DNA of 64,000 bases from Leucoraja ocellata (Eukaryota), in contig JAWMAR010000267.1 in assembly GCA_036785375.1 (NCBI GenBank), forward strand, positions 372,001 to 436,000, read 5' to 3'. The position numbers and the translations under genes were made by a program. Shown in pieces: positions 463 through 52,008 of this stretch (positions within the stretch are counted from its first letter, which is position 1; every line of letters starts with the position of its first letter). Below the pieces are notes generated by a model. It did no database searches. It was not told where the DNA came from and worked only from the letters and a program-made list of their open reading frames with translations.

Positions 463-558
463 CGGTCTGAAGAAAGGTCTCGACCCGAAACGTCACCCAT
501 CCATTCTCTCCAGAGATGCTGCCTGTCCCGCTGAGTTACTCCAACATTTGTGTCTACC
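463..558 (+). mobile_element. Short non-autonomous Penelope-derived repeat with hammerhead core
   Basis: ggt-CTGAAGA(467-473)-aaggtctcgaccc-GAAACGTC-acc followed by the family body. Flanked by TTCTAGAAAA at 453-462 and 559-568 (10-bp TSD). Confidence 0.85.
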
Positions 559-3506
559 TTCTAGAAAAACCTAAAATGCACGGCATTGAGTAAAATCATA
601 TTGGTTAATTATATGCCAGCAGCATAAAATAGATTTTAAACTAGACCTCACCGCCATATCAAATAGATAGGTAATTTGAAAGTAACTACTATCAATTTGT
701 TTTATACCCGTATCATATGTGTAGGTGAATTCCTTTGCTTTTTGCAAGTGACTAATTACAATTACTGCATCATTATCCCAGCATGCATACACACACTGTT
801 GATATATTCTACCAGGTCGTTTGAAACTTTGCCACCGCAAGTAGAAATAGACAAATAAATCACAGCGTGGACAACTGATCAGCTAATTTTTACATTATAT
901 TCGCTAAGCACCGCGCAGGTGTTGATCAGATGGTTGGGCTGATCATCGCACTCGTAACACTTGTACGACGTTTCAGGTAGGAAATTAACTTTTGTGCAGT
1001 AGTCATAATTTATTCAAATTTATATCTCAAATTGCTTTCTAATGTACTGCCACTGAAAGGGCTGTTTACTGTTAGCTGATTACTGTGTGGGTATTTACGT
1101 ATATGTGTGGAGAAGTTTAACAGAACATGTGCTGTGCAGTGATAACTAATACATGTGCGCGTTATCTATGGGCTTTGCAATTACACACACACACTCGGTT
1201 TGGACAACTGTAGCAGGATGTCCACATCCATTCATCTACCTGATATCTGATGTACACCGCTTTTTAATATAGCACAATACCACCAATTTTACAAAATCAT
1301 TCAATTAATAAATTACAATTAAATGAACGACCATAAATGAAGATGAAAAGATGACATCTAATTGTATTTAACCTCCATCGTTCACTGTTATGGCCGTGTC
1401 GATAATGAGACCTGCGAACCCGGCAGCAACAATGATCGTTGGACGAGTTCAGGTAATGAGTCGCAAGGACGGTGTTTGAAAAAAAAAATGCTTGAGAATA
1501 TAGATCATCTATTCTCCTTTGTACTCTTCAGCAAGGACATAAAATGTTAACGATAGTGAAAAGGAGAGCTGTTTTCCAATGATGGGGTGTATTTCTGCAG
1601 TGCGGACTGGATTGTTCAGAAAAATGCACATTCATGTTTTCTTTAAAAAAGTAAACTTTGAATAGGATTCATTGAGGATAGTTGACATCCTATTTTATCC
1701 GCATATCTTCCCCGGTGCTTGTCATCAACTGGTCTAGATTTCGATTTAATAGCTGAGTCTAAGCAGCCTCGCTGAGGATCTGCCATTGATAACGTATCCG
1801 CGGGCATTGACATAAACCAAGAGCAATTCACCTAGAAAACAGCTAACAATGGCCTGTTTCCTTTATCGTCATTTCTTTAAAATATATATATTTCATTCTG
1901 CAGTTCCTTCCTACACAATGCAACTTCCTCCTCCACTCAACCCACGCACACATGTGTTCGGGGTTTGGAGAGTTAATATGTATTCCTGGTTTAATTATGG
2001 ATCTAGCTTGGCTTTAATACCAATGAATTGGATGGCGACAATTGAAGCACTGGGATCATGTACCAGCATACGGCCGGTTCACATTTATAGTATACAGGTG
2101 TTTGGTGCTCTGGGTATCACAGATACCAAATCTTCACATTAGCACTCTCCTCAAATTCGTATTATCTTTACTAAAGCAAAGCAATTGTACTATGATCATT
2201 TGGGACGAGCCAAGTGCGTTTTAATAAATGCAAATTCATGCGCATTTCTTAAATAAATGTATTCTAACATACACTTCCGGAAATATACCTGTTTAATTAT
2301 ATTTCAATACTTTAACATTTAATTCCACACTACCAAAGCTCTGCTATAGGATCTTTGCACACTACTACGCGGTAACATTTTGTTCAACGTTACAGATATC
2401 ACGACCAAAGCGAATATGAGTTACCCAGCAATCCTGCCTTGGAGATTCTGGTTGTTTCTGTGAAGTTTATCTGTGATTCCATGAACTGCTGCTGTTAATC
2501 CTCAGAGAAAGGACAACAAAAACAGGACTGGCCATTTGTCCAAAATTCGTATTTATCTAATAAGAAGAGTGGCGTTAAAACGTAACTTGGTTTTATTTAC
2601 ATTATCACAGTTATAACATTTGTTTCAGTTTCGCTCTGGAAGTCCTCATCCAAACCATCTCTTTAATTGACCCACATTGTTAATTGGAGAAGTCCCGTAA
2701 AACAACGGCCTTTTAATTTTTGCCCATTCCTTGATTTAAAGAGACCATTTCAAATATCATTTGGGAACAAAACTGCACATTATGTCAGTTCCATTGCTGT
2801 TTTTCTTTTCAAATTGCACAAGTATATATGAACAGTTAAAGGTCAAAACATCAAGGTCAAGGTGCAGTTGTAGCGCCGGCAACGTTTGAAAATGTGTTCT
2901 CAATGTAAACCGAGAGGGAAAATTATTTTTAAATTGTATGCGATATTTACCCAATACAATCAACCTTAAGAAGCACATAAACCCTAATGGAATCAATCAT
3001 CTCTCAAATGCAAATGATTATTATTTGGAACAGAAACGCCACTTATTTTTAAAGATTAATCACTAATTTTACTCTGTGTCAGATCAAATATTCACTTCAT
3101 TTATTGGCACGGACTTGTTTCTTAAATGGGCTCATTGAGAACTTCTGAAACAAACCAATATTTTGCAGATGTGGAATTGTGCTGACCATAATTTCATTTC
3201 AGCGCCAGTGGTGCCAATCCGTCTGCCTAAGGCAGACTTTTTAACAAAGGGATTTGGGGTGAGTCAAATCGTGGGAATTTACCCCCCCCCCCTCCCCCCT
3301 CCACCCCTCGGCCCAGCCACCAACCCCGCCGCCCCCTTCTGAGAGAAACCGCTGATACCGACCCAGATGCCAGATTGGACCCAACCATAAAGTTTCATGA
3401 ATAAAGTTATTGGCTGCATTTCCAATAGATTTTTGCGGTTTCCATTGGTAAAGGGATAGCAGTTTAGGACCCAACATCGAATAACTGGGACATTTGGAGG
3501 AAGGGA

Positions 3507-3534
3507 GGGGGGGGGGGGGGGGGGGGGGGGGGGG
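3507..3534. repeat. Poly-G tract; poly-C tracts also at 7718-7739, 10647-10666 and 37406-37432
   Basis: Directly visible homopolymers of 20-28 nt. Confidence 0.9.
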
Positions 3535-49169: not shown

Positions 49170-49650
49170 CCACTACCATCCTCCATCAGCAGGCCAAATG
49201 TATTTCTTCTTTTAACTCCATTGACATCCTCAAAGTCAAAGTTGTAGCTGTGAGAACTTGCATGGTACTTTGTAGGACTTGTGGAACAATCTTATTCTGA
49301 TCCAACAGGAGACCCTTCCTTCACCTTAACTTCCATACGTTGATTGCTCTACTGGCCCCTGCTCTCATACAGAACACATTTGGAGCCAGTTTCCACTCTG
49401 CTCTTACTTGTACATCATCTATATTTGACTCTTGCCGTTCTTGATGTATCTATCCTCATTTCAGGGGATAGGCCAGTGAACAATTTCCTTTACAGGCCCA
49501 CAGACTCCCACAGTTATCATGACTACACTTCTTCTCTCTCACTTCCATTCCCTTCATCCCAGTTTCTCCACTTCTATCATATCTACTCTGATGATGACTC
49601 GTTTCACAGCAGTATTTCTGATGTCCTCCTTTAATCTTCAAAGAGAAAGG
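49170..49650 (+). mobile_element. Old degenerate Penelope-like RT fragment
   Basis: YRPTDSHSYHDYTSS...PSSQFLHFYHIYS aligns with YKLTDSHGYLDYTSS...PYCQFLCLRRICT of the element at 50.6 kb. Many disruptions. Confidence 0.75.
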
Positions 49651-50627
49651 AGTTTAGGAAAAAACTCAGAATTTTGCCTAGGAAGCTGAACATGATTTAA
49701 CTTTTTCCCCGAGGCATTTCCTGTTTGATACTGATGGCATTTACAAGGCTTTTAATAGACAAGTAAAATACAGAGAAGTTAATGCATTTCTCTGGCTGAA
49801 CTTGTAAGCAGTTTGTACCTGAGGGAGAGAACATTAACCATGATTTTACAACCAGATTTTATAACCAAGTTAATAACAGCACAATTATGAGTACCTTTTT
49901 AATTTCCTGATGAGTGCTTCGAAGGAACAAGACTCCCTTACAGTATCTCAAACTCGAAAAGTAAACCTCACTAAGGAGACAATGATATTTGCATTTGTAT
50001 CCAAGGAAACTACAATGAATGTTCCATTGAACAAAAACAAATTATGGCATCTTAAATCTCATAATATTGTAACTTAACTTAATTGAAATAAACATGTAAT
50101 TGCTGATACACACTGTCAATATAGTGAAAAGGCTTTATACTGTAATAGATGTAAATAGATTGCTACAGGTTTAAAAATCAACTGAGCAGAACCTTTTCGT
50201 CAATCTCATGTCATTGTTTGGCAATTTCCTTGCGTTACACATATGAAAGGCCTAATGAAGGGCCTTTGAAATTCAAAGTCCGAGCTATTTTTGGAGCGGT
50301 CTGTTCAATAGCACTGGTTATAGAAACAGACAGAATGAGTCCATTGAGGTTTTATGCTAAGTTTTGCTTTGAATGGATTTGGCAGCTGGTAATCCAAACA
50401 GGACACAGTTATTACATGAGACGTGAGAGGTTTCTTCAGCAAATGGACCAGCTGAATTTGGGAACCCTGCCCTGAAGAAACCAACATGGTAACAGTGACA
50501 CTAATCAATGGATTTTGATTCCAAACATCTCTGTTATGGTTAAAATTGGACGACTTACCATTTAACTGCACATTTTGCAGCATTTTCCTCACATGACTTC
50601 AAGATTCTCACATCCAATATCCAATAT

Positions 50628-52008
50628 CACATTCCAAATACAAGGCGTAGGTATGGGCACATGCATGGGCCCCAGCTATGCCTGTCTCTTTGTAGGGTAC
50701 ATCGAACAATCCTTGTTCGAGGCGTACCGTTGTCCTATCCCTGAACTATACCTCCACTACATTGACGACTGCAATGGTGCCACCTCCTGCACCCATGCAG
50801 AACTCACTGACTTCATCCATTTCACCACTAACTTCCATCCGGCATTCAAATTCACCTGGACCATTTCCGACATCTCCCTACCGTCTCTAGTCATCTCCAT
50901 CGCAGGTAACAGACTACTGACCGACATCTACTACAAACTCACTGACTCCCATGGCTATCTGGACTACACTTCTTCCCACCCCGCTTCCTGTAAGAACTCT
51001 ATCCCCTACTGCCAATTCCTCTGTCTACGCCGCATCTGCACCCAGGATGAGGTGTTCCAAAACAGGGCACCAGAGATGTTCTCATTCTTTAGGGGACGGG
51101 GGTTCCCCTCTTCGACTATAGATGAGGCTCTCACCAGGGTCTTCTCTATATCCCGTAGCTCTGCTCTCATTCCCCATCCCCCCACTCATAACAAGGGCAG
51201 TGTCCCCCTTGTCCTCACCTTCCACCCTATCAGCCGTCACATACAACAGATAATCCTCCAACATTTCCGCCACCTCCAACAGGATCCCACCACTGACCAC
51301 ATCTTTCCATCTCCTCCCCTTTCGGCTTTCTGCAGAGACCACTCCCTCCGTAACTCCCTGGTCAACTCGTCCCTCCCCACCCAAACCACCCCCTCCCCTG
51401 GTACTTTCACTTGCAACCGCAGGAAATGCTACACTTGTCGCTTTACCTCCCCCCTTGACTCCATCCAAGGACCCAAGCAGTCTTTCCAGATGAGACAGAG
51501 GTTCATCTGCACCTCCTCCAACCTCATCTATTGCATCCGCTATTCTAGGTGTCAACTGCTCCACATCGGTGAGACCAAACGCAGGCTTGGCGATCGCTTC
51601 GCCCAACACCTCCGCTCAGTTCGCAATAATCTGATCTCCCGGTGGCTCAGCACTTCAACTCCCTCTCCCATTCCGAATCTGACCTTTCTGTCCTGAGCCT
51701 CCTCCATGGCCAGAGTGAATCCCACCGCAAATTGGAGGAGCAGCTCCTCGTATTTCGCTTGGGTAGTTTACACCCCAGCGGTATGAACATTGACTTTTCC
51801 AATTTCAAGTAGTCAGTGCTTTCTCCCTCATTCCCCTCCCCTTCCCAGCTCTCCCACAGCCCACTATCTCTGCCTCTTCCTTTCTAATTCCTGCCCCCCC
51901 CTCCCCCCACATCAGTCTGAAGAAGGGTCTCGACCCGAAACATCGCCTATTCCTTCGCTCCATAGATGCTGCTTCACCCGCTGAGTTTCTCCAGCATTTT
52001 TGTCCACC
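50628..52008 (+). mobile_element. 5'-truncated Penelope-like retroelement (RT plus GIY-YIG endonuclease, probably Neptune-type) with terminal hammerhead module
   Basis: ORF 50575-51696 has RT motifs QIQGVGMGTCMGPSYA and YLHYIDD, a Cys linker CNRRKCYTC, and GIY-YIG-like LIYCIRYSRCQLLHIGETKRRLGDRFAQH. A frameshift near 51630 continues as DLPVAQHFN...LGSLHPSGMNIDFSNFK with TAG at 51810-51812. Candidate TSD TCCAATAT at 50620-50627 and 52009-52016. Confidence 0.92.

Follow-up and report, generated by a model that had tools for sequence, protein, structure and literature searches.

A 64,000-nt stretch of the genome of the skate Leucoraja ocellata (contig JAWMAR010000267.1, positions 372,001 to 436,000; hereafter the window) contains a short dispersed repeat, here called the module, which carries the motif of a minimal hammerhead ribozyme (min-HHR) and also closes a Penelope-like element (PLE) with reverse transcriptase (RT) and GIY-YIG endonuclease regions. 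We consider it probable that the module is the hammerhead-bearing terminal segment of this RT/GIY-YIG element, and that its dispersed copies are solo or inverted pseudo-long terminal repeats (pLTRs) of Neptune-type PLEs, belonging to several subfamilies and generated by target-primed reverse transcription. This kind of element has been known since 2014, and the window family adds a member in skate. A first-pass annotation of the same DNA had read the dispersed copies as retrozyme-like, ribozyme-headed PLE derivatives, a reading that is not supported by the analysis reported here.

A Penelope-like element ends in the hammerhead module

The element at 50628-52008 is flanked by an 8-nt target-site duplication (TSD; 50620-50627 and 52009-52016) and is a dead copy, its open reading frame (ORF) having a frameshift near 51627-51630; the stop codon is at 51810-51812. 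As the first-pass annotation had noted, the module ends this element, with the hammerhead core at 51917; the hammerhead lies about 105 nt 3' of the stop codon and has ACAU in place of the ACGU palindrome. Alignment confirmed the order of an RT followed by a C-terminal GIY-YIG domain with CCHH, and placed the linker cysteines at C261..C266-x2-C269. Pfam detected RVT_1 and GIY-YIG on close homologs, while the window ORF's own GIY-YIG reached only E=0.11; the first Cys and the YIG Tyr are mutated in this copy. Among 242 homologs the best were gene models of whale shark (63%), stingray, zebra shark and manta, and a thorny-skate gene model reached 80% over half of the query; unnamed and coral proteins followed at about 50%, the level of the invertebrate homologs. 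The Cx2-5CxxC linker was found in 89 of the 94 listed homologs with a YIG motif, and this linker is described as a mark of Neptune and Nematis, not of Penelope or Poseidon (PMC8557442). By its motifs the PLE is best assigned as Neptune-type, Neptune and Nematis not being separated by a tree.

A second PLE RT fragment, older and with greater divergence (39-50% to homologs), lies 1 kb upstream of the main element at 49440-49625 (+). Three elasmobranch gene models, P0002, P0006 and P0075 (kinase-like, chitinase-domain and nicotinamide riboside kinase isoform), include PLE ORF sequence, reflecting either exonisation or an annotation artefact.

Module census and conservation of the hammerhead core

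A profile built from 12 window copies recovered 32 module arms, 19 on the plus and 13 on the minus strand, summing to 2371 bases or 3.7% of the window; the reversed window, used as a control, gave none. Grouped by eye, these arms represent about 22 insertions. The repeat reported in the first-pass annotation, which had counted about 20 copies or fragments, is real. The arms carry or flank the motif CUGAnGA-A-stem II-GAAA-CGUH, with the core defined as C3-U4-G5-A6-N7-G8-A9 ... G12-A13-A14-A15.1 ... U16.1-H17. All 11 core letters are kept in 7 of the 11 arms that span the whole core, the ACGU palindrome is present in 7 of these 11, and core, 4-bp stem II and palindrome are intact together in four (5754, 11849, 15973 and 47892). 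Stem II is 4 bp in intact module copies, an extra A stands between positions 9 and 10.1 in 16 of 17 arms, and the G10.1-C11.1 pair and palindromic 15.2/16.2 without a loop III, both features of min-HHRs, are present in the module.

A relaxed hammerhead expression matched the window 11 times, eight of them inside the repeat (467, 5272, 5754, 11849, 15973 and 51917 on the plus strand; 47892 and 17352 on the minus strand). The remaining matches, at 43601, 63181 and 37291, are unrelated sequence and were rejected as module copies. The 28-nt string that had been quoted for the best copies occurs exactly at 5754 and 11849 and nowhere else, with 467, 47892 and 51917 each one base off. Three other copies listed as best do contain the motif, with departures in stem II: its first pair is broken at 467, its loop is 1 nt longer at 15973, and 47892 (-) contains a G-U pair. 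The CTGATGA variants at 5272 and 17352 are likewise present, although 5272 keeps two of four stem II pairs and 17352 lacks U16.1, and stem II at 18270 does pair through a U-G pair but has no CUGA box.

The core is somewhat better conserved than downstream sequence. Across the 16 arms spanning both, 130 of 137 non-CpG core positions matched the column majority compared to 775 of 887 downstream (P=0.003, column permutation), and 94.9% compared to 90.3% in the best-conserved downstream block (P=0.009); these figures are inflated by local-alignment trimming, which biases the 5' edge. The Rfam search that had been proposed as a check returned no match in the whole window at the gathering threshold, and no hammerhead match in two stretches even at E<=10. 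The Rfam models do not include this minimal form, and the miss is not counted against the hammerhead. Neither ARAGORN nor Rfam found a tRNA-derived head, in agreement with the earlier view that these repeats are not tRNA short interspersed elements (SINEs); the head of the module is the hammerhead.

Eighteen of the 32 arms lie within the first 18.5 kb (1-18500), a region that looks CpG-richer by eye, with a dense cluster at 15.1-18.5 kb. Pfam searches of the 21 other window ORFs found no host exon.

PLE ORFs of relatives are followed by the same core

A pattern scan of 9 of 64 parts of a metagenome contig collection gave 126 matches at 121 loci. Judged by eye, their downstream flanks are unlike the skate module. 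A PLE C-terminus ended 67-165 nt before the core in 23 of the 101 matches with at least 300 nt upstream, and five loci are opposite-strand pairs, in four of which 19-31 nt separate the cores. In the flanks, which the search pattern did not cover, helix I pairing over four positions reaches 77%, compared to 50% in shuffled sequences (0 of 2000 shuffles), measured over 64 distinct contexts with kinship not controlled, and several pair types occur per column (A-U, C-G, U-A and G-C). Locus L001, which was picked up through its protein only, has about 100 nt behind the ORF a stem II of different sequence in which all positions pair. Two homologs, P0003 (zebra shark) and P0023, continue at their C-termini into the reading frame of the hammerhead.

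Together, the core behind PLE ORFs in relatives, the covarying helix I, L001 and P0003/P0023 indicate that the motif is a real, selected min-HHR of linker-type PLEs. Two further claims of the first-pass annotation hold: the identification of a minimal hammerhead of a PLE, which is of type I, and the link of repeat to PLE terminus, which extends beyond the window. A chance resemblance in an ordinary repeat would fit with the absence of Rfam matches at E<=10 and with a core only modestly above the best downstream columns, but it does not account for the recurrence behind PLE ORFs in unrelated hosts, and we regard it as effectively refuted by the helix I pairing of the relatives and by L001.

Viral and prokaryote collections gave no hammerhead matches when scanned with the DNA pattern, and a protein scan of viral contigs gave no PLE relatives. 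L001 itself (4001-5050) is a contig of a prokaryote metagenome-assembled genome with an animal-type PLE 3' end and min-HHR, likely host contamination of that assembly.

Module copies bear the marks of PLE insertion

Three features that were absent from the first-pass annotation, TSDs, head-to-head pairs and two alternative 3' ends, characterize the dispersed copies. Exact TSDs of at least 8 nt flank 7 of 20 curated units, compared to 4 of 380 mismatched flank pairs, with unit boundaries set by eye. Nine units are head-to-head inverted pairs. The two 3' ends of the arms lie about 35 nt apart, the long form being termed the tail; exactly one arm carries the tail in 7 of the 9 pairs and both arms in none. 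PLE insertions are described as having an inverted pLTR at the 5' side, a TSD of 8-10 bp, a 31-bp tail that may or may not be present on one of the inverted pLTRs, and junction palindromes (PMC3846280; PMC8557442). Since the TSDs, the one-arm tail and the inverted pairs match this published structure, the short copies appear to be PLE insertions. No tandem module arrays were found in the window, and no microsatellite targeting was seen for the window PLE copies.

One inverted pair, at 18146-18352, is nested in another module copy and duplicates 14 nt of that copy. Its subfamily is the one nearest to the PLE end, with 92% identity to 51921-52003, and the pair makes up an almost perfect inverted repeat of 95 bp (96%). 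This and the other eight inverted pairs would form long double-stranded RNA hairpins if transcribed.

Repeats resembling SINEs, each ending in a short tail of the (TAAAC)n type, lie at 52016-52345 (-), 39959-40244 (+) and about 57000-57122, and their 3' end abuts the module end in three places (52008, 40241 and 57123). They are putatively V-SINE/HE1.

The 5' ends of module arms cluster at the hammerhead

Among 31 independent arms, six run into upstream family sequence (5751, 11846, 15594, 15944, 18089 and 51914; partly by eye), 15 start in the interval from -2 to +16 of C3 and showed no homology further upstream, three start within 5 nt of the cleavage-product start, and seven start further downstream, the ends being staggered from about -190 to +51. 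The first-pass annotation had noted that several copies begin within a few nt of the core. Ribozyme cleavage as the general source of these ends was rejected, as only the arm at 25129 begins exactly at the cleavage-product end and two more lie within 5 nt. Sequence 5' of the scissile bond is retained in 21 of the 31 arms, so the templates were likely uncleaved RNA. Of 51 metagenome copies of relatives that allowed the test, 20 cease to resemble an ORF-linked member of their family within 22 nt of C3 and 29 extend beyond 60 nt; all 51 had been chosen because their core is intact, and divergence between subfamilies could look like truncation. Transcription start, RT stop and palindrome-guided joining are candidate causes of 5' ends and inversion junctions at the ribozyme 5' edge, which we consider an open lead. 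A many-copy family with 5' ends piled at its ribozyme offers a natural data set for separating marks of cleavage, RT stop and transcription start.

Directly 5' of position 2.1, a polypyrimidine tract followed by YAG occurs in all four arms that retain upstream sequence of the family. In D. virilis, helix I has been described as the place where an intron ends (PMC4209133). A splicing-activated ribozyme is unsupported here, with no RNA joint found among the 15 best-supported joints (713 more lie beyond those), and the 12 commonest trinucleotides at the same site in relatives do not include YAG.

Reads of relatives fit passive read-through

Reads of relatives were compared with positions 50500-52100 at 85% likeness, using a raw polyA RNA run (X24) and two sets of DNA contigs (X18 and X21). 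Depth climbs through the ORF in the 5' to 3' direction and then rises sharply at the module, where it exceeds that of the ORF end about 10-fold in X24 and about 5-fold in X18 and X21. Module reads are strand-symmetric (2678/2494 and 3145/2778), and ORF reads lean about 1.2-4:1 toward first-mate-plus, which in most stranded libraries corresponds to antisense RNA. No pile-up of molecule starts or ends was seen anywhere, in what is one fragmented polyA run of a relative and a weak test of cleavage. This pattern fits passive read-through in host transcripts. DNA contigs connect the ORF end to the module via differing spacers of about 70-195 nt, indicating that several subfamilies have the module in common, and a few contigs show short back-jumps over the module.

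Predicted ribozyme activity

The first-pass annotation had given stem I as 2-3 bp and activity as uncertain. Helix I is 2 bp in 5754, 11849 and 51917 (+), where min-HHRs typically have 4-5 bp; the median of the relatives is 3 bp, often reaching 4-5. In silico, the purine-rich core forms a competing hairpin with the downstream pyrimidine tract, and the predicted probability of stem II formation is at most 0.03 in 5754, 11849 and 51917, compared to 0.83 in 15973 and a median of 0.96 in 79 relatives. Published min-HHRs are reported as inactive as monomers and of low activity as dimers (PMC4209133), and one of nine Xenopus retrozyme dimers is reported to have cleaved (bioRxiv 2026.07.22.740005). 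Dimerisation in cis within inverted pairs was considered and is impossible, because the two cores lie on opposite strands. The dispersed copies would thus appear to be inert. For the master elements of the family, we put cleavage, as a dimer or with the assistance of protein, at close to an even chance.

Origin of the dispersed copies

In the mechanism we favor, the PLE protein would nick DNA and start complementary DNA (cDNA) at either of two internal sites, about 70 or 105 nt behind the hammerhead; internal RT start sites have been demonstrated in vitro for an anole PLE (PMC11167929). If the start site used were that of the pLTR copy close to the transcript's 5' end, or if synthesis stalled at the hammerhead, the products would be only 100-140 nt long, which would account for modules outnumbering ORFs. 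Head-to-head pairs may arise when both nicked strands serve as primers or when the stem II palindrome primes itself. Any activity of the ribozyme would likely be confined to tandem PLE transcripts, where it could dimerise or be helped by the protein of the element. Most of the dispersed copies are probably inert and carried along passively in host transcripts.

Several observations weigh against the pLTR origin. Only 1 of about 22 window insertions carries an ORF, and that one is a 5'-truncated copy, with no full-length or tandem PLE copy seen in the window. No TSD of at least 7 nt flanks 12 of the 20 units. In the commonest subfamily (5754, 11849 and 15591) the sequence upstream of the module does not match the 3' untranslated region (UTR) of the window PLE, and we infer the link of that subfamily to an ORF. 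In addition, contig depth is not copy number, and the clade assignment comes from motifs without a tree that includes named references.

A more elaborate version of the PLE reading, which we hold as a speculative and rather unlikely one, is that the hammerhead fold, not cleavage, shapes PLE remnants as a hot spot of cDNA ends and joins (the 15 of 31 arms here and the 20 of 51 invertebrate-type relatives). In the skate lineage the ribozyme would have been cut to a 2-bp helix I, masked by a hairpin and either gated by protein or kept as a structural signal, seeding an abundant non-autonomous family of about 100-140 nt. Also unlikely is a genuine non-autonomous, SINE-like family derived from a PLE pLTR, in which a short RNA from master loci starts just 5' of the hammerhead and is mobilised in trans by PLE protein. 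The 15 arms that start at the core, and the module depth far above ORF depth in the relatives' data, would be expected of such a family; rotifer pLTR sequences are reported to have sufficed for mobilisation in trans (PMC3846280), and non-autonomous PLEs are described in Chlamydomonas (PMC8557442). However, the 5' ends are staggered rather than fixed, the same clustering occurs in ORF-linked invertebrate-type families, module RNA reads are strand-symmetric with no end pile-up, and ARAGORN finds no tRNA-like head.

Non-LTR retrozymes, in which self-cleaved and circularised RNAs are reverse-transcribed into monomers and tandems, are very unlikely. An origin of retrozymes from PLE pLTRs has been proposed, and one chondrichthyan genome is reported to have them, many as monomers (bioRxiv 2026.07.22.740005); the arm at 25129 begins exactly at position 1.1. 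Against this, tandem module arrays are absent, the module's own 3' end never precedes the core (by eye), and TSDs, inversions and tails are marks of PLE insertion. The hammerhead is minimal rather than canonical with loop-loop contacts, Rfam finds nothing, and in 5754, 11849 and 51917 helix I has 2 bp while stem II, outcompeted by another hairpin, hardly forms in silico. Only 1 of 31 arms starts exactly at the cleavage-product end. The copies do not fit the published definition of non-LTR retrozymes by tandem repeats, a canonical hammerhead and circular RNA (PMC7229834), and the earlier label of ribozyme-headed, retrozyme-like derivatives is not supported.

Relation to known elements

The closest precedent for pLTR debris with a hammerhead is that of Cervera & de la Pena 2014, who described min-HHRs in the terminal repeats of metazoan PLEs (PMC4209133). 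The module shares with those the loopless palindromic 15.1-16.1, the extra nucleotide between 9 and 10.1, the G10.1-C11.1 pair, the site behind the ORF, solo copies from truncated PLEs (thousands in that report) and opposite-strand pairs; it differs in helix I, reported as typically 4-5 bp (2 bp in D. virilis) and 2 bp here, with a stem II of 4 bp. The text of that paper and its two searchable supplements name no shark or skate, one further file not being searchable, and a literature search, with Dfam/Repbase outside its scope, found no publication on the skate-type module family. The Neptune-clade PLEs described in PMC8557442 and PMC3846280 have the same order of RT, Cx2-5CxxC linker and GIY-YIG with CCHH, and likewise show truncation at the 5' side, an inverted copy there, a tail at one of the two ends and a TSD of 8-14 nt, whereas the window copy is truncated and frameshifted and shows no microsatellite targeting.

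The anole Poseidon element PAc (Frangieh et al. 2024, PMC11167929) resembles the window family in that two RT start sites define the tail, the hammerhead lies upstream of them and no RNA-seq ends fall at the cut; it differs in lacking the linker clade mark, and its ORF starts within the hammerhead, where for the window family no ORF start was seen. In that system both DNA strands are reported to be cut and extended, hammerhead mutants leave insertion unchanged, and the hammerhead cleaves only with protein (PMC11167929). Non-LTR retrozymes (PMC7229834; bioRxiv 2026.07.22.740005) are likewise short, non-coding, equipped with a type I hammerhead and related to PLE pLTRs, but are described as 150-450 bp tandem repeats with a canonical hammerhead and abundant circular RNA, in contrast to the dispersed, inverted, TSD-flanked copies with a minimal hammerhead seen here. 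The role of PLE hammerheads is described as still open (PMC8557442). For annotation, an abundant skate-type repeat can be relabelled as Penelope pLTR debris with a ribozyme motif, not a SINE.

Feature coordinates and neighboring repeats

Table 1. Module copies and PLE features in the window (a dot marks units with arms in both orientations).
Feature	Coordinates	Strand	Remarks
Solo module	463..558	+	short 3' end; 10-nt TSD; first stem II pair broken
Solo module, CUGAUGA variant	5270..5366	+	stem II degraded; TSD not found
Module with ~120 nt upstream pyrimidine-rich sequence	5632..5848	+	intact core 5754; boundary by eye
Head-to-head pair	11762..11943	.	tail-only arm on - (11764-11802), intact + module (core 11849); 8-nt exact TSD
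Module truncated 3' of hammerhead	13047..13130	+	tail; 7-nt TSD
Module beginning inside stem II	15124..15244	-	tail
Module with ~65 nt shared upstream sequence	15468..15660	-	tail; core mutated
Head-to-head pair	15860..16062	.	tail on + arm only; 13-nt TSD; intact core 15973
Head-to-head pair joined inside hammerhead	17000..17204	.	tail on - arm only
Older solo module, CUGAUGA	17259..17356	-	cleavage triplet lost
Inverted unit (17899-, 18089+ resuming at 18354)	17859..18404	.	split by nested insertion
Nested head-to-head pair, joined at stem II	18146..18352	.	no CUGA box; tail on - arm; 14-nt TSD from host copy
Old module fragment	18416..18480	+	
Old head-to-head pair	25040..25196	.	+ arm (25129) has its first base at the cleavage-product end, position 1.1
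Head-to-head pair joined across stem II	34524..34720	.	tail on + arm; 9-nt exact TSD
Module beginning inside core	39278..39406	+	tail
Module fragment	40241-40274	-	
Module fragment	44401-44438	+	
Module beginning at C3	47765..47893	-	intact core; tail
5'-truncated PLE	50628..52008	+	RT C-half, thumb, linker, GIY-YIG, 3' UTR, hammerhead module
ORF remnant	50632..51812	+	RT motifs including YIDD, Cx4CxxC linker, GIY-YIG/CCHH region
Minimal hammerhead at PLE 3' end	51915..51946	+	C3 at 51917; predicted cut after 51944
Head-to-head pair joined at core	56418..56636	.	tail on + arm; 9-nt TSD
Degenerate head-to-head pair without hammerhead	57122..57216	.	
Module fragment	61495-61564	+	
Polypyrimidine tract + YAG, like a 3' splice site	5750-5753, 11845-11848, 15592-15595 (-), 51913-51916		

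Another 3'-end repeat family, 80-95% alike and terminating in short tandem tails, occurs at 30569-30827, 45730-45996, 53840-54347, 63656-63922 and 41452-41585; presumably these are CR1/L2-like LINE ends. Minisatellites at 29857-30427 and 60699-60935 consist of 14-nt GC-rich units on both strands and a G-rich 15-nt unit.

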